From Methanobrevibacter sp. (GTDB lineage: Archaea > Methanobacteriota > Methanobacteria > Methanobacteriales > Methanobacteriaceae): a stretch of 46,871 nt of DNA. Where the stretch lies: contig NZ_JAZNIB010000252.1 in assembly GCF_045577275.1 (NCBI RefSeq), positions 1 to 46,871 of the forward strand, written 5' to 3'. The notes under the pieces are model-generated. The model made no database searches. It saw nothing but the letters and a program-made list of their open reading frames with translations, and was not told the origin of the DNA. The position numbers and the translations under genes are program-made. Shown here piece by piece: positions 29,020 through 46,871 of the stretch (position 1 is its first letter; each line of letters begins with the position of its first letter).

Positions 29020-29529
29020 ATGTGTGAAGTAGATAAGAATAAAATTGAAATAATTGTAGCAGATTATGAAAACTTGCAAAATATAGATTTTGATTGTGGG
29101 GATGATGATTTAAATGAGTTTTTATTAGAAAATTCTTTTATTAATTTAAATAACAATTTAAGTGTAATATATTTATGTAAGTATTATGATGACATAATTG
29201 GGTACATAGCAATTTCATCAGATTCTATTTCCCTCGAAGAAAAATTAGAAGTGAGATATCCCTCATATCCAGCTATTAAAGTAGGTCGTTTGGCAATAGC
29301 TAAAAATTACCATAGAAAAGGAGTGGGTTCTTACTTATTACAGTGGGTAGATGGATTATGTTTAGAACTACAAGAGCAAATTGGTTTGAGGTTTGTGTCT
29401 GTAGATGCTTATAATGATGGGAAAGTTATAAAATTTTATAATAAAAATTCATTTAGGGCATTATTAAAAGATAATGAGGATAAAGAAAATATCCCTATGT
29501 ATAAAGATTTACATATTTATAACGAATAA
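29020..29529 (+). CDS. GNAT acetyltransferase, toxin-like
   Basis: FDCGDDDLNEFL, YPAIKVGRLAI..YHRKGVG, VDA..FY..F motifs of AtaT/TacT-like GNATs. Confidence 0.85.
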   Translation: MCEVDKNKIEIIVADYENLQNIDFDCGDDDLNEFLLENSFINLNNNLSVIYLCKYYDDIIGYIAISSDSISLEEKLEVRYPSYPAIKVGRLAIAKNYHRKGVGSYLLQWVDGLCLELQEQIGLRFVSVDAYNDGKVIKFYNKNSFRALLKDNEDKENIPMYKDLHIYNE

Positions 29530-30166: not shown

Positions 30167-31768
30167 CTACTTAATAAATATTATCTTCATATCAAAATCA
30201 TTTAACACATCTTGATATTGTTCACAATATTTTTCTTTATCATTATCTACAAATTCACTAATTAATTTGTTATGTTCTGGATTATCCTCATCAAATTCCA
30301 TATTATTCTCTACTTCAAAATCATCAATCATATTGTCTCTGATTTTATCAATACCTTTTTTTAATATAGAATTTCCATTTTCGTCTTTAATTTCAAATGC
30401 TTTTTTATTTTTTTCAGTTTCTTTATTTTTAATAATTATTGTCCCATAATCATTTGTAATAACCCCATATTTGATTCCTAATGTAGTAAAATTTACAAAA
30501 TCATCAAATGAAGGGAAATTAGATGTTTTGAATGGATGATTATGAATTACAAATAGAAGTTCCCCATCTTTACCAGTTTCTTTAATCCATAATGGGAGAT
30601 TTACATTATCAGTTTCCCAATCTCCAAAGCCTAAAAAAGTATTATTAATAAATACACTCATAAATTCAAAAAATACATTAGGCAATTCTTCTCTAAAATG
30701 AGATACAAGATTTGCAATCCATTCATCCTCACCATCATCGACAAAGTCTTTAATTTGATTAATGAAATACTCTTTATCAATTTCAGTTAATTTTTTTTTG
30801 GATACTCTGTGTTCATTACCTTTTAATGATGAAGAGAATAATCCCCTTAATGGTACTCCATAGGAATTATTATCAAATAAATGAACAATAATCGGATTTT
30901 TTGGAGGCTCTCCTTTTGTTTTCCATATGCTTGTGTATGTGCATCTGCAATTGGGATGGAATGGAGGGAACATTCCTCCTTTAAGTAATTCGAGGATATT
31001 GTGTATTTTTTCTTCTCCATGGTTCTCAAAGATTACTGGAGTATCTTCGTTGAACTCAAAAGCATAAGTTAAGCAAGTGTAACAGACATTGCTATCTTCA
31101 GCGGTTAAGATTTTTACTTCTGTGTATCCCTCGTTGACATAAGATTGCAGTATCCCTGTATTCTGGGCACGGCTTACTTCAGTCCTTGCTATCATCACTG
31201 CACGTTGCATAGGAGAAAATGTAGATCCATCAAGTCGTGTACCTAATGTATCTCTTATTTTAGGTGCCAGATTCTTTGGATTTTGACCAGAAATAATTCC
31301 GGAAATAACATTATTTTTTATTTGATAACGTGTATCAAAATCTATCCGAGTCATTAGTCCAAAATTATAATCTCGAACAAAATCTAAAGCTAGTTTGTCT
31401 GTATCTGAGAATCGGATGTGTTCTCTCATATCTGCATAACCTTTAGCCTTGCCACGATTATAAACTTCTTGCAACAATGCTTCAACACTAGGATATTTGC
31501 TTTCTAGAATCTTATCCCATTCGTCTTCTAGGGATTGGAAGAGTTCATGCTGATACTGTGCCTCCTCTTTGAACATCTGTTCTGCTTCTTCACTTTCCAA
31601 CCAGTTAACCGCCTTATCTACTTGACTGTTGAGAAGGTTCATGATTGTGTTGTAGTATCTCAGAGTCCACTCATCATTGATGCTTTTAACACTAAACGCA
31701 TCCCACATATCCAATTCAGTAAGAAGGATATGATTAGTTTTGATTCTTTCTTCAGAAATCATATTCAT
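30167..31768 (-). CDS. MuF/SPP1 gp7-like minor head protein with C-terminal JAB/MPN-like domain (copy 1)
   Basis: Canonical position after portal; IARTE and PPFHPNCRC; C-terminal IHNHP..FPSFDD. Confidence 0.85.
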   Translation of the reverse strand: MNMISEERIKTNHILLTELDMWDAFSVKSINDEWTLRYYNTIMNLLNSQVDKAVNWLESEEAEQMFKEEAQYQHELFQSLEDEWDKILESKYPSVEALLQEVYNRGKAKGYADMREHIRFSDTDKLALDFVRDYNFGLMTRIDFDTRYQIKNNVISGIISGQNPKNLAPKIRDTLGTRLDGSTFSPMQRAVMIARTEVSRAQNTGILQSYVNEGYTEVKILTAEDSNVCYTCLTYAFEFNEDTPVIFENHGEEKIHNILELLKGGMFPPFHPNCRCTYTSIWKTKGEPPKNPIIVHLFDNNSYGVPLRGLFSSSLKGNEHRVSKKKLTEIDKEYFINQIKDFVDDGEDEWIANLVSHFREELPNVFFEFMSVFINNTFLGFGDWETDNVNLPLWIKETGKDGELLFVIHNHPFKTSNFPSFDDFVNFTTLGIKYGVITNDYGTIIIKNKETEKNKKAFEIKDENGNSILKKGIDKIRDNMIDDFEVENNMEFDEDNPEHNKLISEFVDNDKEKYCEQYQDVLNDFDMKIIFIK

Positions 31769-37029: not shown

Positions 37030-37509
37030 TTATTCATCCTCCTCAACAATGACATTCTCATCCAACAGCTTGACTGTATTCCAATAGGCTCTTTCTAGAA
37101 GATTTGGGTCTTTAAGTTTCAGATATTCTGGGGTTATGTGGCCGGTGCGGCCTTTTCCTGCCATCACACAATCCACTATCATCTCAATCACATCTATAAG
37201 GTTTACATCCAATGGGCAATTGGCATTTAAATGGTGTCTTTCTTTAAAAATATGTTTCTGATACCATTCCTTATTGGTAAACTCTTCATTGGTATGTCTA
37301 CTTAGGACGTTTTCTGCATATTCATCAAAGTGGATTATTTTAGTATAGTCATGCAGATTGCCTCTTCTCTGAATGGATCCGCTGATAAATTCCATGCCTT
37401 TTTCAACATCATGGATATGTTGGACTGTATCGTCTTTTAAGGTTTCATAACTTAGGTTTTCATCTGCTGTTCTGCTGTCAGCATTCTTGGTTCTTCTAAT
37501 AGTGATCAT
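37030..37509 (-). CDS. DUF5662-like (HD-like) protein
   Basis: HDYTK, H..ERHHLN, VNLIDVIEMIVDC. Confidence 0.65.
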   Translation of the reverse strand: MITIRRTKNADSRTADENLSYETLKDDTVQHIHDVEKGMEFISGSIQRRGNLHDYTKIIHFDEYAENVLSRHTNEEFTNKEWYQKHIFKERHHLNANCPLDVNLIDVIEMIVDCVMAGKGRTGHITPEYLKLKDPNLLERAYWNTVKLLDENVIVEEDE

Positions 37510-39796: not shown

Positions 39797-40273
39797 TCAT
39801 TCATCACCTCTTTCCATATTGCATAACATTACTAGCTTGCAGGCAGTATTATAAACTGCCATCTGCAAAACATCTTCAGGAACCTTCAAATAATTCAAGT
39901 TCAATTTCCCACTCCTTTGGAGTCCTGCACTCACACAGTCACAGGTGAACTCCAAAACATCCAACAGATCAACATCATCATGAACCCCTGTAGAAATGTT
40001 CAAATGATGGCGTTCAATTTTCATATGCTCCTCAAAGGTCAAATTAGGGAAATCGAATTTGGTCCAATCATGGTTAAGGCCACGATACAACAAGGCCTTA
40101 GAAATGACCTCCATTAACTTATTCACCATATCCACATGAACCCGTGTATCCTTTAGGGCCTCTTCCCTATCAACACCCTCCTTGCAATAAATGTAAGTGG
40201 CCATTGGAGCATGCTCAACTTCGAGTTCATGAATATGCTCCTTGTACCAACTGTTATAATCAAAATCCAACAT
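39797..40273 (-). CDS. DUF5662-like (HD-like) protein, second paralogue
   Basis: HDWTK, H..ERHHLN, VDLLDVLEFTCDC. Confidence 0.65.
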   Translation of the reverse strand: MLDFDYNSWYKEHIHELEVEHAPMATYIYCKEGVDREEALKDTRVHVDMVNKLMEVISKALLYRGLNHDWTKFDFPNLTFEEHMKIERHHLNISTGVHDDVDLLDVLEFTCDCVSAGLQRSGKLNLNYLKVPEDVLQMAVYNTACKLVMLCNMERGDE

Positions 40274-43262: not shown

Positions 43263-43694
43263 TCACATCCTCCTCTTTATGTCTGTTGCTAACCTATTGC
43301 AGCCGCTGGCTGCATCGCCCCAACGGATGACACCTGCGCTATGGTGTCTTCCATTGTATAATGGTATTCCTCTGCTGTCTTTCCACATTGGAGCGTAATG
43401 GTCTCTCACTTTTTCGGCTTCCTCTTTTACACATGATAATAGGTATGGATCATAATCCCCATTTCCCAATTCAAGTGGGAAATGGTCATATAATGTCTTG
43501 TCATGTGTGTATTGGAAGTAGTCCTCGAATAGGTGCTGGACTGCCTCGTATAGCCTTTCGTCATTGTTGGTTCTGGCTTTTTCCCTTAAAAGCAAGAGCC
43601 GTGTTTTGTTGATTTGTATGAAATCGTTGAACACTTTCATATCCTCAGGGTATTCGGGATATTTCCTTTTTAGTTCCTCAATGCTTGCAACCAT
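43263..43694 (-). CDS. hypothetical protein
   Basis: Start moved to MVASIEELK (GGGAGG RBS). Confidence 0.6.
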   Translation of the reverse strand: MVASIEELKRKYPEYPEDMKVFNDFIQINKTRLLLLREKARTNNDERLYEAVQHLFEDYFQYTHDKTLYDHFPLELGNGDYDPYLLSCVKEEAEKVRDHYAPMWKDSRGIPLYNGRHHSAGVIRWGDAASGCNRLATDIKRRM

Positions 43695-43714
43695 AAATAT
43701 TCGCCTCCCCATTT

Positions 43715-43894
43715 TTACCAGTGGAAATATCCATAGGTTGGAGGTATGAGTATGAAGCAAACAATTAGGAATAATATAATGGCTAGGATGATTAGTGTTG
43801 TGATGCTTATTCTAATCACCAAGTCATTCTGTAGGATTGATTGTCTTGGGTCTGCTCTTTCAAGTGTTCTTGAACTGTTTGGTTTTGTGAACAT
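43715..43894 (-). CDS. 59-aa membrane protein
   Basis: Manually translated MFTKPNSS...ITTLIILAIILFLIVCFILIPPTYGYFHW; GAGGAGG RBS. Confidence 0.6.
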   Translation of the reverse strand: MFTKPNSSRTLERADPRQSILQNDLVIRISITTLIILAIILFLIVCFILIPPTYGYFHW

Positions 43895-44153
43895 TTTTAG
43901 TAGTCCTCCTCAAAGTTTTTAAGGTCTTCAATTGCTTCAAGGCATTCTTTTGCGTCTTGGTCTAGCTCATCAAAGAAATCTGTGTTCATTCTATCAGCTC
44001 CCTGGTGTGGCCTGTATTTTCACTCCATGTTAGGTAGATTTGGCCTTCTGGGTGGAATTTGTCTCTTGCTTCCTTGGCTGTTTCCTCTAGTCCTCTTATG
44101 TGGGAGGTTCCCTTGTTGTGGATTATGAGGTAACTGTTTTCTTTGCGTACCAT

Positions 44154-44390
44154 TTAGATCACCTCGAGGATTTCCCATTTGTCATAGGTGTAGTTTGTGT
44201 TTCCGCTTGGGCTTGGATCCTTGTATGTTTCCATGTGTTTGCAGTTTGCTTCGCCTACGAGTTTTACCTCTGTGTTGAAGTGGGAGGTTCTGTTGTCGAA
44301 TTTGAAGCATGCGCTTGTTGTGTAGATGATCTCACCCTTTTTGAGGGGGGTGTGGTTGGTGGAGTAGATGGGGATTATTGTTTCCATCAT
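44154..44390 (-). CDS. hypothetical early protein
   Basis: ATGA overlap with the upstream 59-aa ORF; GGTGG RBS. Confidence 0.55.
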   Translation of the reverse strand: MMETIIPIYSTNHTPLKKGEIIYTTSACFKFDNRTSHFNTEVKLVGEANCKHMETYKDPSPSGNTNYTYDKWEILEVI

Positions 44391-44566
44391 TTACCACCTT
44401 CAACGACTGCTTTGTTGTTTGTATTAAAACCAGTTACATTTTTATCCACTTTTGTTGTGGATTTTCCGTTTCGTGTTCTTTGCAGTTCGTGGACGCATGC
44501 GATTGCACGTTGTGCTTCGTCATGTTCCTTGTGAGTGTAAAGAACACCATCTCTACAAAATTCCAT
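44387..44566 (-). CDS. 59-aa first early gene (antisense target)
   Basis: Manually translated MEFCRDGVLYTHKEHDEAQRAIACVHELQRTRNGKSTTKVDKNVTGFNTNNKAVVEGGK; GTGAT RBS; stop overlaps the next ATG. Confidence 0.65.
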   Translation of the reverse strand: MEFCRDGVLYTHKEHDEAQRAIACVHELQRTRNGKSTTKVDKNVTGFNTNNKAVVEGGK

Positions 44567-44612
44567 AAACTATCACTTGGACAATAAATTTGCAAATTTT
44601 TGGAACTGCCAT
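44553..44612 (-). CDS. 19-aa leader peptide candidate
   Basis: MAVPKICKFIVQVIVYGIL*; covers the RBS and start of the 59-aa gene. Confidence 0.35.
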   Translation of the reverse strand: MAVPKICKFIVQVIVYGIL

Positions 44613-44624
44613 TCACAAAAATTC

Positions 44625-44747
44625 ACTTAAAGTTATATATGTTTTTCTTATATATATACTTATGCAATTATTTATGCAACTTAATATACATAAATATATA
44701 TAATTGATATTACATATTTAATATTATAAAAAAATAAAAAGGAGCGT
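44625..44747. promoter_or_regulatory. divergent promoter region with candidate operator repeat
   Basis: TATA-like runs facing both directions; TTATGCAA direct repeat at 44660-44667 and 44672-44679. Confidence 0.55.
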
Positions 44748-44930
44748 ATGAATATGCTAATGAAAGTAAAATCGAAAGTAGGGAAAGCAAACACAATAAA
44801 TGATTCCCTAAGAGTAATTATACCTCAAAACGTTAAACAAATATTACAATTAGAAGCAGGGGACACTCTTGAATGGAAAATCAATAGTGAAAATGATAAA
44901 ATTGTAATAATTGTTGAAAAATCAGAATAA
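44748..44930 (+). CDS. AbrB/MazE/SpoVT-family DNA-binding regulator
   Basis: SLRVIIPQNVKQILQLEAGDTLEW; AAGGAG RBS. Confidence 0.85.
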   Translation: MNMLMKVKSKVGKANTINDSLRVIIPQNVKQILQLEAGDTLEWKINSENDKIVIIVEKSE

Positions 44931-44991
44931 AAATTTTAAATTTATTAAAAAATTTTTTTTAAAAATAGCTTTGTTCGTGATATTGCGAAAC

Positions 44992-45045
44992 TGTAAAGAA
45001 CACCATCTCTACAAAATTCCATTTCTACCACTTGACAATAAAATT
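44992..45045. repeat. direct copy of the 5' end of the 59-aa early gene
   Basis: tgtaaagaacaccatctctacaaaattccat is identical at 44536-44566 and 44992-45022, then diverges. Confidence 0.85.
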
Positions 45046-45071
45046 TTAGTATCTTATATTAAACTATTCCT

Positions 45072-45090
45072 GTAAGTAAAGTTTAAATAA
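45072..45090 (+). promoter_or_regulatory. archaeal BRE/TATA promoter with no downstream ORF
   Basis: Purine-rich gtaagtaaag followed by TTTAAATA at 45082-45089. Confidence 0.55.
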
Positions 45091-45112
45091 AATCATAACA
45101 ATATATAATATT

Positions 45113-45245
45113 ACGACACAGACACTAAAAATACTATCACTTGGACGTTTTAGCTATTTTTTTTATTCTGATGTCTGCATAGTTGATGAAATACTGTGTA
45201 GACAACTGCCATTGTACTACTAGTATTTCGCTTGAAACTATGCCA
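45113..45245 (+). ncRNA. putative two-loop antisense regulatory RNA
   Basis: Stems 45119-24/45172-77, 45125-30/45148-53, 45177-84/45236-43, 45188-95/45222-29; loop sequences match 44569-82 and 44604-13. Confidence 0.6.
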
Positions 45246-45334
45246 TTAACCATAAATGACTCATTTTTATTATAACCAATGCATTATAAATTTACTACTT
45301 CTCACATAACATAACCACACCAATAAATATTAAA

Positions 45335-45709
45335 CTAATTTTCTAAACTTTCTAATAAAGAATTAATATCATCACGAGCCTTTTTAGCATTTCGGATAAT
45401 ATTATTCCTAAAACCTTGATAATAATCAGCCCTATTACGATAAGTCCTCAACTTACTTAATGCCTCAGCAAGATCAACTTCTTCCTCATCCCCATAAAAA
45501 TTTAAACGCTCAATCAATGTTTCATGAGGATGTTTTTGGTACCCTAAAGAATGATACTTCTTTTCGTAATAATTCTTCACAAGATGATAACAGGAATAAT
45601 AGTAACGTCCTACAGCAGAACGCTGATAAGCCTCTTCTGAAGAATGCTCTTCCAAATGAACCCCCACATCATTAAATTCTTTCCAATCAAAAACCATAAT
45701 AATTACCAC
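45335..45709 (-). CDS. HEPN domain protein
   Basis: RSAVGRYYYSCYH, HETL and LRTYRNRADY motifs. Confidence 0.85.
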   Translation of the reverse strand: MVIIMVFDWKEFNDVGVHLEEHSSEEAYQRSAVGRYYYSCYHLVKNYYEKKYHSLGYQKHPHETLIERLNFYGDEEEVDLAEALSKLRTYRNRADYYQGFRNNIIRNAKKARDDINSLLESLEN

Positions 45710-46188
45710 AAATCTACAGATAATAAATTTTTCACTGAATCATCATAAAGAGATAACTTTCTAATCTCCCTATTGACTTTTTTTACCTCTTCCCAATCTT
45801 CATCAAAGGAGCCATCATCTCCTTTTACATACACTATTATTTTATTGAAGCTTGGGATTTCCGGATCTTTATCAAACTCTAGACCAAAACCATATCTTGG
45901 GAAATGATTTTTTAATACGGGAGCAACTTTTTCGATTAATTCGATAAGACCAATATTTTTAATAATAAAATCAATTATATCATCCTCATTGACCAAATCA
46001 AAATTACTTAAAGTATTTTGAATGAAATATACAATAGAAGGATAATTCTCAACATTGGTAACAGAGTAACTTCCATTTATACTTGAACTGTCCTGACTAA
46101 AACTAACATCAAATGATTCCTCTGTCCCCATATTATCATTAATGGATACAGTGTCTCTTATAGTGGTAGTTGTAGCTATATCATTCAT
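45703..46188 (-). CDS. acidic protein coupled to HEPN, candidate antitoxin
   Basis: Overlaps both neighbours; Ser/Asp-rich N-terminus; HFP..LEFDKDPE alpha/beta C-terminus. Confidence 0.55.
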   Translation of the reverse strand: MNDIATTTTIRDTVSINDNMGTEESFDVSFSQDSSSINGSYSVTNVENYPSIVYFIQNTLSNFDLVNEDDIIDFIIKNIGLIELIEKVAPVLKNHFPRYGFGLEFDKDPEIPSFNKIIVYVKGDDGSFDEDWEEVKKVNREIRKLSLYDDSVKNLLSVDLW

Positions 46189-46871
46189 GTGAATCCTCCT
46201 TATTCATTTCTTCTCTTAAAACATCTGTAATGGCTGCATTATATTTGAACCATATAAAACTGTTCATTTGTTTTAATTCATCAATAACTTCATCAATTTC
46301 CTTAACCTTTTTAGTGGTGCAATCCAAGTCCAGGATAAAATCCTTATCAAAATTAGGATTAGGATATGCAGCATTAAATAAACCATATTGGAAATTTAAA
46401 ATATAATCTCCTTTCTTAATGGACAATCTGTTTAAAATCTGTATGAACTCTTCATCCTCATCAAGGTCCATAATATAACTGGAGAAATATTTTGGTTCAA
46501 TGCGTTCTTTAAGTTCAGGAATAGATTTTCCATCGATTTGGTTGATGTATCTTAAACCCAAAAATGAGATATCCTTTGGATCATAACCTTTTATTGCATC
46601 GGTTAATAGGATGATATCATCTAGGAAATATCTGAAGTGTGTGTAAGCCCCTTTTTTATAATGGAGAATTAAACTTTTTGAGGTTAATTCTACAGATTTG
46701 TTATGTAACCTGTTTTTGAAAACCCAAATGTAAGTTCCATCTGGAGTTATTTTTGTAGGTTCGCCTGTCTCTACATCAATCCCTATGTTTAATTCATGAT
46801 GTCTTTTTATGGTTAGGTTTGGGAATTCTTTAGAGATTTTTTCACGGAAATCTTTTGCAGCTTCTTTATTA
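46181..46871 (-). CDS. TIGR04255-like protein (5' end outside the window)
   Basis: Frame checked manually and is open to the window edge; LGLRYINQI and FILDLDC motifs. Confidence 0.6.
   Translation of the reverse strand, partial: NKEAAKDFREKISKEFPNLTIKRHHELNIGIDVETGEPTKITPDGTYIWVFKNRLHNKSVELTSKSLILHYKKGAYTHFRYFLDDIILLTDAIKGYDPKDISFLGLRYINQIDGKSIPELKERIEPKYFSSYIMDLDEDEEFIQILNRLSIKKGDYILNFQYGLFNAAYPNPNFDKDFILDLDCTTKKVKEIDEVIDELKQMNSFIWFKYNAAITDVLREEMNKEDSHE

Follow-up and report, generated by a model that had tools for sequence, protein, structure and literature searches.

A candidate two-loop antisense RNA predicted to pair with the early leader of methanogen viruses

When a contig of Methanobrevibacter sp. 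(46,871 nt, analysed at its full length and called the window below) was compared with related loci, we found that a plus-strand element at 45113..45245 carries two loops matching two sites in the leader of the early operon, and that loops and sites vary together in relatives. The element is probably a virus-encoded, trans-acting, C4-like antisense RNA of about 133 nt with a predicted promoter of its own, which would keep the first early gene from being translated and so aid provirus silence and immunity against viruses of the same address. Judged by the sequence comparisons presented here, RNA–RNA pairing with the leader is highly probable, a block of the RBS by the RNA is predicted with good confidence, and a role in lysogeny or immunity appears rather likely. 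A promoter-like box, two covarying hairpin domains, a K-turn motif and two loop/target matches are seen in the sequence, and the elements most likely represent a new archaeal family of C4-like antisense regulators.

The window spans an entire contig with the gene set of a tailed virus (terminase, portal, capsid, baseplate, and a PMBR/peptidase C39 lysin), and its host is a pseudomurein-walled methanogen. Its three closest relatives (G014, G009, and G025) lie in genomes of the same genus. There is no integrase on the contig, which ends 1.6 kb beyond the RNA; an integrase lies 3–4 kb past the element in two of the three relatives (G009 and G025), a temperate context. Elsewhere, the window holds two MuF head-morphogenesis genes (152–1873 and 30167–31768) that are 75% identical over the first 295 aa and have unrelated C-termini, which we take to resemble MuF proteins with variable C-terminal domains, as well as two DUF5662 paralogs (37030–37509 and 39797–40273) and a single plus-strand GNAT acetyltransferase gene within the head module (29020–29529). 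Past the RNA, minus-strand cargo occupies 45335–46870, namely a TIGR04255 family gene, a 161-aa gene, and a 124-aa gene, presumably HEPN-like, as we read its RNRADY as such a motif. This slot holds different cargo in each relative.

The early operon lies on the minus strand. Its first gene (44387..44566, 59 aa) has no family match, and its stop overlaps the start of the second (ATGA). The second gene (44154..44390, 78 aa) also has no family match and is kept in relatives; a distant match of its protein showed the same layout with unrelated sequence. The predicted early promoter (44649..44680, minus strand) consists of a TATA-like box at 44650–59 and two TTATGCAA direct repeats at 44660–67 and 44672–79, which we infer to be candidate AbrB operators. 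Other repeats occupy this position in the relatives, and the repeats track the AbrB type. Divergent from the operon, and between the leader target and the RNA, sits a plus-strand gene for a 60-aa AbrB/MazE-type DNA-binding protein (44748..44930; Pfam PF04014, E 2e-5, 24.9 bits against a cut-off of 24.7; other profile matches weak), which is likely to be a protein repressor.

Between this gene and the RNA promoter lies a second, unexplained plus-strand element (44956..45070). At 44992–45022 it repeats the opening 31 nt of the 59-aa gene (44536–66), so that a perfect direct repeat flanks the AbrB gene. Among the relatives, G009 has its own 33-nt version of this start-of-gene repeat, G014 has 17 nt, and G025 has none. 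A plus-strand reading of the copy would be antisense to the first ten codons of the 59-aa gene, and recombination between the two copies would delete AbrB.

The first-pass annotation had proposed an RNA switch downstream of a promoter box in an ORF-free segment. The box TTTAAATA is indeed present at 45082–89, preceded by a purine-rich BRE-like stretch at 45075–81 (predicted promoter 45075..45089, plus strand), and the segment contains no ORF of at least 40 aa. The predicted RNA is conserved in three congeneric proviruses, and its 3' end may extend to a T-run near 45263. The two-domain fold was also confirmed, with an energy of -39.0 kcal/mol (z -5.54) that was reached by none of 200 shuffles. 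Domain 1 (45115..45175) comprises a closing helix, an A-run paired with the T-run at 45157–61, and the apical loop UUGGAC. The register originally suggested for it (CAGACA/TGTCTG plus CTAAAA/TTTTAG) was not borne out, as it gave -5.3 kcal/mol compared with -13.6 for the MFE register, which is GACACAGA/TCTG-A-TGTC plus AAAAATA/TATTTTT and pairs five of the eight T residues of the run at 45157–64. The same annotation had cautioned that this run could terminate transcription after domain 1. Since the run lies in a stem and a conserved closing helix follows it, the working form of the RNA very likely reads through; that this helix and loop 2 are both conserved speaks against termination there as the working form, and it might occur as a minor product.

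Domain 2 (45177..45243) is a long hairpin with a K-turn motif, in which GA at 45185–86 stands opposite the bulge CUU (45231–33) and GA at 45234–35. By the definition given in the available part of PMC5061560, the window sequence CG[CUU]GAAA / UUGAUG has a 3-nt bulge followed by G.A and A.G pairs and a canonical helix 5' of the bulge, and the motif is a predicted L7Ae site. Two G-U pairs (45187/45230 and 45196/45221) that had been said to favour plus-strand folding are part of the MFE structure, but the energy scarcely distinguishes the strands, as the minus strand folds with -38.8 kcal/mol (z -3.74).

Both matches between the RNA and the early leader are exact. The 14 nt at 45133–46 are identical to 44569–82, the 10 nt at 45204–13 are identical to 44604–13, and each sequence occurs exactly twice in the window. 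A leader match of 14 nt arose in none of 20000 shuffles and one of 10 nt in 374 of 20000, so the shorter match is weak alone and draws its support from the relatives. The 14 nt constitute guide 1 (45133..45146, loop part 45141–46), whose target combines the Shine–Dalgarno-like GUGAU (44572–76) with the variable 6 nt upstream of it, GUCCAA (44577–82), in a weak minus-strand hairpin (leader site 2, 44567..44585) ending 2 nt before the AUG at 44566. Loop 2, CUGCCA (45206..45211), is complementary to the loop UGGCAG (44606–11) of leader hairpin 1 (44592..44626, minus strand), a 14-bp hairpin lying where the early message is predicted to start. The matches had been described as exposed in the two domains; this holds for the 6-nt core of each (45141–46 and 45206–11), which is unpaired and costs 0.01 kcal/mol to open, but the remainder of the 14 and 10 nt is not loop.

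When the window was aligned with G014, G009, and G025, the scaffold proved to be kept, and the words adjacent to the RBS all differed (TTGGAC, TGCTAG, TACTAG, and ATTCCATG). The word is mirrored in loop 1 in each case, i.e. guide and target have changed together in all four. Cognate guide-1 matches are 14, 14, 13, and 15 nt long, whereas non-cognate matches reach 7–9 nt. In G025, loop 2 and the leader loop are both TGGCGG, the stems around them are unrelated, the upstream AUG is gone, and a change in the outer stem is compensated.

For a wider survey, an AbrB profile was run over 314 Methanobacteriaceae genomes, 86 of which had matches, at 106 places in total. The 72 loci examined were 70 of the 72 best places together with two IMG/VR loci. 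A two-domain element was found within 420 nt downstream of the AbrB gene in 39 of them, and further off in three more. The statistics were calculated for 35 loci, after L204 (the same as L179), L192 (RNA identical to that of L191), L212 (RNA identical to that of L203, with host-like DNA upstream), and L232 (leader apparently deleted) had been dropped. As the loci are related and mosaic, the counts that follow are not independent.

Loop 2 occurs in 11 alleles among the 35 loci. Under a strict stem rule, 33 loci have its reverse complement within a hairpin loop of their own leader, compared with a mean of 5.3 and a maximum of 15 in 20000 permutations; the hexamer itself was found in the cognate leader in 35/35. 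Pairs of loop 2 and leader carrying different alleles matched in only 2 of 1032 cases, and the stems flanking loop 2 have only 0–6 of 8 nt in common with the target stems. Guide 1 matched its cognate leader over 12.7 nt on average and other leaders over 6.5 nt, the cognate being strictly best in 27 loci and best or tied in 32, and by duplex energy it was best in 30. Of 18 internal guide mismatches, nine are G.U-compatible for a plus-strand RNA, one for the minus strand, and eight are transversions. Co-variation of loop and target, as seen in the four close genomes, extends to the wider set. The locus L192 is a counter-example, as its leader is 2 nt short within the guide-1 site even though its RNA is the same as that of L191; in L195, guide 1 matches only 7 nt exactly, and 16 with two G.U pairs. 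On the AbrB tree, a weak one with few columns and many open forks, the loop alleles required 23 changes, compared with 23.0 after shuffling. Being scattered in this way, the alleles argue against shared ancestry as the explanation of the loop/target match.

The stems are kept with compensatory changes. Both comparative outcomes that the first-pass annotation had named as able to refute it, unconserved stems and independent variation of loop and target, were thus looked for, and the results went in its favour. In a sequence-only MAFFT alignment of 24 short members, 14 of 22 pairs changed on both sides, and the covariation score of 0.458 exceeded all 500 shuffles (0.199) and the slid controls (at most 0.151). 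An alignment of 48 members fitted to the model, which leans to the model, gave two-sided changes in 18/22 pairs. The K-turn motif, with a 3- or 4-nt bulge, was present in 30 of 35 loci on the RNA strand, in none on the other strand, and in 1.1 in shuffles, and a TATA-like box started 28–34 nt (about 31 nt) before the 5' stem in 33/35. A word of at least 10 nt shared between leader and downstream region was found in 33 of 34 RNA-bearing loci, as against three of 31 AbrB loci without the RNA.

The first-pass annotation had read loop 2 as complementary to the first AUG of the leader. The site that it matches is the hairpin loop at 44606–11. An AUG overlaps this site in only 7 of the 35 leaders, the close relative G025 has no such AUG, and masking of an upstream AUG was rejected. 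Most likely, loop 2 pairs with the leader hairpin loop instead.

Seven loci with an upstream leader that were met after the rule had been set (L253, L263, L264, L278 copy 1, L279 copy 1, L282, and vir075) all fit with both loops, and one of them carries, from sequence reading, a ribbon-helix-helix-like gene in the place of AbrB. The model R1 found additional copies in 16/150 and 14/150 genomes. Model searches of the other families sampled found copies in 0/9, 0/5, and 0/1 genomes (15 in all), and psiM2 gave a match of only E 0.26. A second conserved element of about 47 nt with two hairpins (AGC-N4-GCU, a linker, and a UCGC/GCGA or CCUC/GAGG hairpin; e.g. L180, L193, L206, and L215) was found by a loose pattern between the AbrB stop and the RNA promoter in 24/35 loci; outside genus g1, no target for it was found within about 1.5 kb.

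With family models built without the window's genus, default filters missed the window RNA; with the filters off, it ranked first, in the right place and on the right strand, at scores that are not significant (12.4 bits, E 0.1, and 15.6 bits, E 0.6). Its closing helix differs from that of the GGUUAC-type family, and its domain 2 is longer. It has the family layout in its slot behind AbrB, the TATA spacing, the two domains, the T-run, the K-turn, and loops matching its own leader. As the model score is weak, it is the position, the layout, the spacing of the promoter, the K-turn, and a loop allele in common that speak for homology to the GGUUAC-type family, and the window RNA may be a divergent family member or a parallel form. 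The evidence from the window's own type (four genomes, two covarying sites, the compensated stem of G025, and the K-turn) stands apart from this question. Neither protein scans nor phage blastn found a match to this type in the viral and metagenome collections; a 14-mer scan of these collections gave 120 loci, none with two copies, and the scaffold pattern gave no viral match and 22 metagenome matches, all due to chance. In the GGUUAC type, a 3' tail UUACA can pair with the 3' strand of the closing helix (5 or more bp in 22/31, 4.0 in shuffles) and varies with that helix (UUAUA, UUACC); such a tail was not seen in the window's type. It possibly provides an alternative pairing after target binding.

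Second copies of the RNA with their own promoter-like box were found in four places in proviral regions (one in G285, one in G190, and two in G202). The guide and loop of G285 copy 2 are identical to those of the G299 virus and fit the G299 leader, and G285 (92% complete) contains no target for them. Likewise, copy 2 of G202, on C2, equals that of the G029 virus and fits the G029 leader, with no target in G202 (99% complete). The remaining two have no known target. These copies of foreign specificity provide the best comparative hint of an immunity role; the plain alternative is that they are relics of recombined proviruses. Eight further copies lack a cognate leader nearby, several of them amid host-like genes (L252, L254, L258, L260, L265, L280, L281, and L283); promoter-like boxes accompany L252, L254, L258, L260, L265, L281, and L283. 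No known leader matches them, and G136 contains no convincing target for L252. They may be either domesticated antiviral RNAs or provirus relics.

One family member is identical to the isolated temperate virus MSTV1, in which the RNA lies unannotated at PP537965 5230–5328 between ORF7 and ORF8 and has the ORF9 leader as its predicted target. The virus vir075 also carries the element; an annotated hypothetical ORF there (BK068243 3128–3508), which overlaps both the RNA and the AbrB-like gene but is read from the other strand, is probably a mis-call. RNA-seq of the MSTV1 lysogen (Supplementary Data 4 of PMC11375127) gives averages of 1.5 for ORF8 (AbrB) and 0.12 for ORF9, most viral genes being low. 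The low level of ORF9 is compatible with repression by the RNA and not specific, as protein repression alone would also produce it. In Supplementary Data 5 of the same paper, most inducers tested had little effect. The authors annotate ORF8 as a MazE antitoxin and propose an ORF6/ORF7 switch, which is absent from relatives, and the main text does not contain the words 'antisense', 'non-coding', 'small RNA', or 'AbrB' (PMC11375127). As the same virus has the element between ORF7 and ORF8, the RNA would constitute a second, unreported layer of control. A search of public runs for the MSTV1-type locus returned eight runs with shares of 0.05–0.15; RNA contigs from four runs on this locus and four on L278 did not cover the element, and as they derive from other strains they are uninformative.

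We propose that loop 2 (CUGCCA) would kiss the loop UGGCAG of leader hairpin 1 and that loop 1 (UUGGAC) would seed on GUCCAA, the K-turn, possibly bound by host L7Ae, bending domain 2 such that both contacts can form. Pairing would then spread from loop 1 into the 5' arm of its domain, covering the SD-like GUGAU and stopping 2 nt short of the AUG; the computed guide-1 duplex has 14 bp and -21.8 kcal/mol, or about -13 after opening of both RNAs. The loss of first-gene translation would be transmitted along the operon by translational coupling through the ATGA overlap, with further polarity perhaps arising from FttA/aCPSF1 termination or decay of the ribosome-free message. Because the RNA would act in trans, an incoming virus with matching loops would be silenced as well, and extra copies would widen the range. 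As a tentative extension, methanogen viruses might run an RNA immunity address system, in which an L7Ae-bound K-turn scaffold presents two variable loops that double-kiss the early leader, and proviruses, perhaps also hosts, collect copies against other viruses. This would amount to a small, Cas-free, RNA-guided antiviral library, with guide and target perhaps rewritten together by copying between direct repeats.

A less probable reading, though one to be taken seriously, is that the RNA does pair with the leader in the way proposed, yet exerts its effect chiefly on transcription or on the stability of the mRNA, by termination as with P4 CI or cleavage as with phiH Tant, the cover of the RBS being secondary. 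In its favour, the hairpin contacted by loop 2 is close to the extreme 5' end and well away from the RBS; FttA of archaea works in a Rho-like manner and cleaves RNA as it is being made, as stated in the available part of PMC13681488; Tant leads to cleavage of its target (PMC4284463, available part); and the counts of the target gene in MSTV1 are below those of the next gene (0.12 vs 0.58; PMC11375127). However, no terminator was identified in the leader, counts for such short genes are noisy, and guide 1 ends within -5 to +9 nt of CAT in 32/35 loci and covers the SD-like motif.

It is unlikely that the RNA serves type I toxin–antitoxin-like addiction or copy-number control, neutralising a toxic or replication-related first gene and conferring no superinfection immunity. 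Plasmid copy number and toxins are both under the control of kissing-loop antisense RNAs, and the targeted first genes are small (38–90 aa) and of unknown function. These genes, however, fall into many unrelated groups while the leader architecture is kept, suggesting that the leader, not the protein, is the conserved target. In addition, they head a long early operon opposite the AbrB-type gene, and extra copies of the RNA fit foreign leaders.

Still less credible is that the RNA directs a protein enzyme to the viral leader, be it as a modification guide of the box C/D or H/ACA kind or as the guide of an unknown RNA-guided nuclease. The K-turn motif implies an L7Ae site, a constant scaffold carries a variable guide, and many members end in UUACA. 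Yet there is no bipartite pocket and no conserved enzyme gene beside the RNA. A box C/D guide was rejected since RUGAUGA and a C box before a D box were each found in 0/35 loci, and an H/ACA guide since guide 1 forms one unbroken stretch in domain 1, away from the K-turn; the tail, which becomes UUAUA or UUACC along with the closing helix, is not an ACA box. Finally, DNA-level repeats with no RNA function (operators, products of recombination or gene conversion, or a decayed duplication) are a most improbable explanation: the real 31–33-nt gene-start duplication next door in the window and G009 indicates that copying between these sites happens, but site 2 shares only six loop bases while its stems differ, stem changes are compensatory, the G.U and K-turn signals are strand-asymmetric, separate operator-like repeats are present at the promoters, and G014 and G009 have different site-1 words beside near-identical AbrB genes.

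The element, carried by viruses of gut and rumen methanogens, spans many Methanobacteriaceae genera and bears on how temperate methanogen viruses choose and maintain dormancy. As MSTV1, the one isolated example from the gut, itself contains it, a cultured host is available for an immediate test of the antisense RNA model. If correct, the model would give P1 C4 an independent counterpart and place a K-turn in a regulator of viral origin; it would also offer methanogen genetics a small repressor that can be programmed, and it bears on the use of viruses against rumen methanogens.

In the literature searched, including the available parts of PMC2864571 and PMC12197685, no description of the two-loop RNA of methanogen viruses was found. 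Among the candidates of Fremin et al. 2023 (PMC10690425, available part) are three anonymous ones that come from Methanobrevibacter viruses, one of them 94 nt long, and the element may already be among them. The nearest likeness is to c4 of phages P1 and P7 (RF01695), a trans-acting structured RNA whose two loops pair with two sites near the RBS; changes in the c4 loops set immunity specificity, and copies of c4 also occur in host chromosomes (PMC5320573, available part). Both systems have two loops that are complementary to, and covary with, two target sites, one at the RBS. Unlike c4, which comprises three stem-loops and is released from a longer transcript by RNase P, the methanogen virus RNA has two hairpin domains and a predicted promoter of its own, is encoded on the opposite strand to its target across the repressor gene, contains a K-turn motif, and is directed against hairpin loops. 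An Rfam search of 43500–46871 of the window (up to E 5) and of 10 family loci (up to E 1) gave no C4-type match, only sub-threshold chance matches. With two covarying loops and targets, no Rfam match, and a different fold and gene arrangement, the view that the RNA is analogous to P1 c4 and P4 CI and probably independently derived was supported. P4 CI is a small RNA that pairs with two early-leader sites and holds the lysogenic state (PMC4825925, available part). It arises by processing of a transcript that carries both its targets, one on either side of it, and it brings about termination, whereas the methanogen virus RNA (plus strand, 45113–45245) and its target (minus strand, 44569–44611) are divergent units of their own, with 550 nt between them; neither the sequence nor Rfam revealed a similarity to P4 CI. 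On one point the first-pass annotation needs amending, as an antisense RNA of archaeal virus immunity is already on record: the Tant RNA of halovirus phiH, directed against the first early lytic message of this temperate virus, is linked to immunity and triggers cleavage (PMC4284463, available part). Tant is cis-encoded on the opposite strand of its target, whereas the methanogen virus RNA lies more than 500 nt from its target, has only short matches to it (pairing via 6 and 11–17 nt), and diversifies its loops. If our interpretation is right, archaea would have in it their first trans-encoded family of two-loop immunity RNAs, as far as the literature searched shows. CopA/CopT and RNAI/RNAII likewise begin with loop–loop recognition, followed by helix extension, and their loop alleles define specificity groups. 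Since these plasmid RNAs are cis-encoded, one mutation changes both loop and target, whereas in the methanogen viruses two separate loci must change together.
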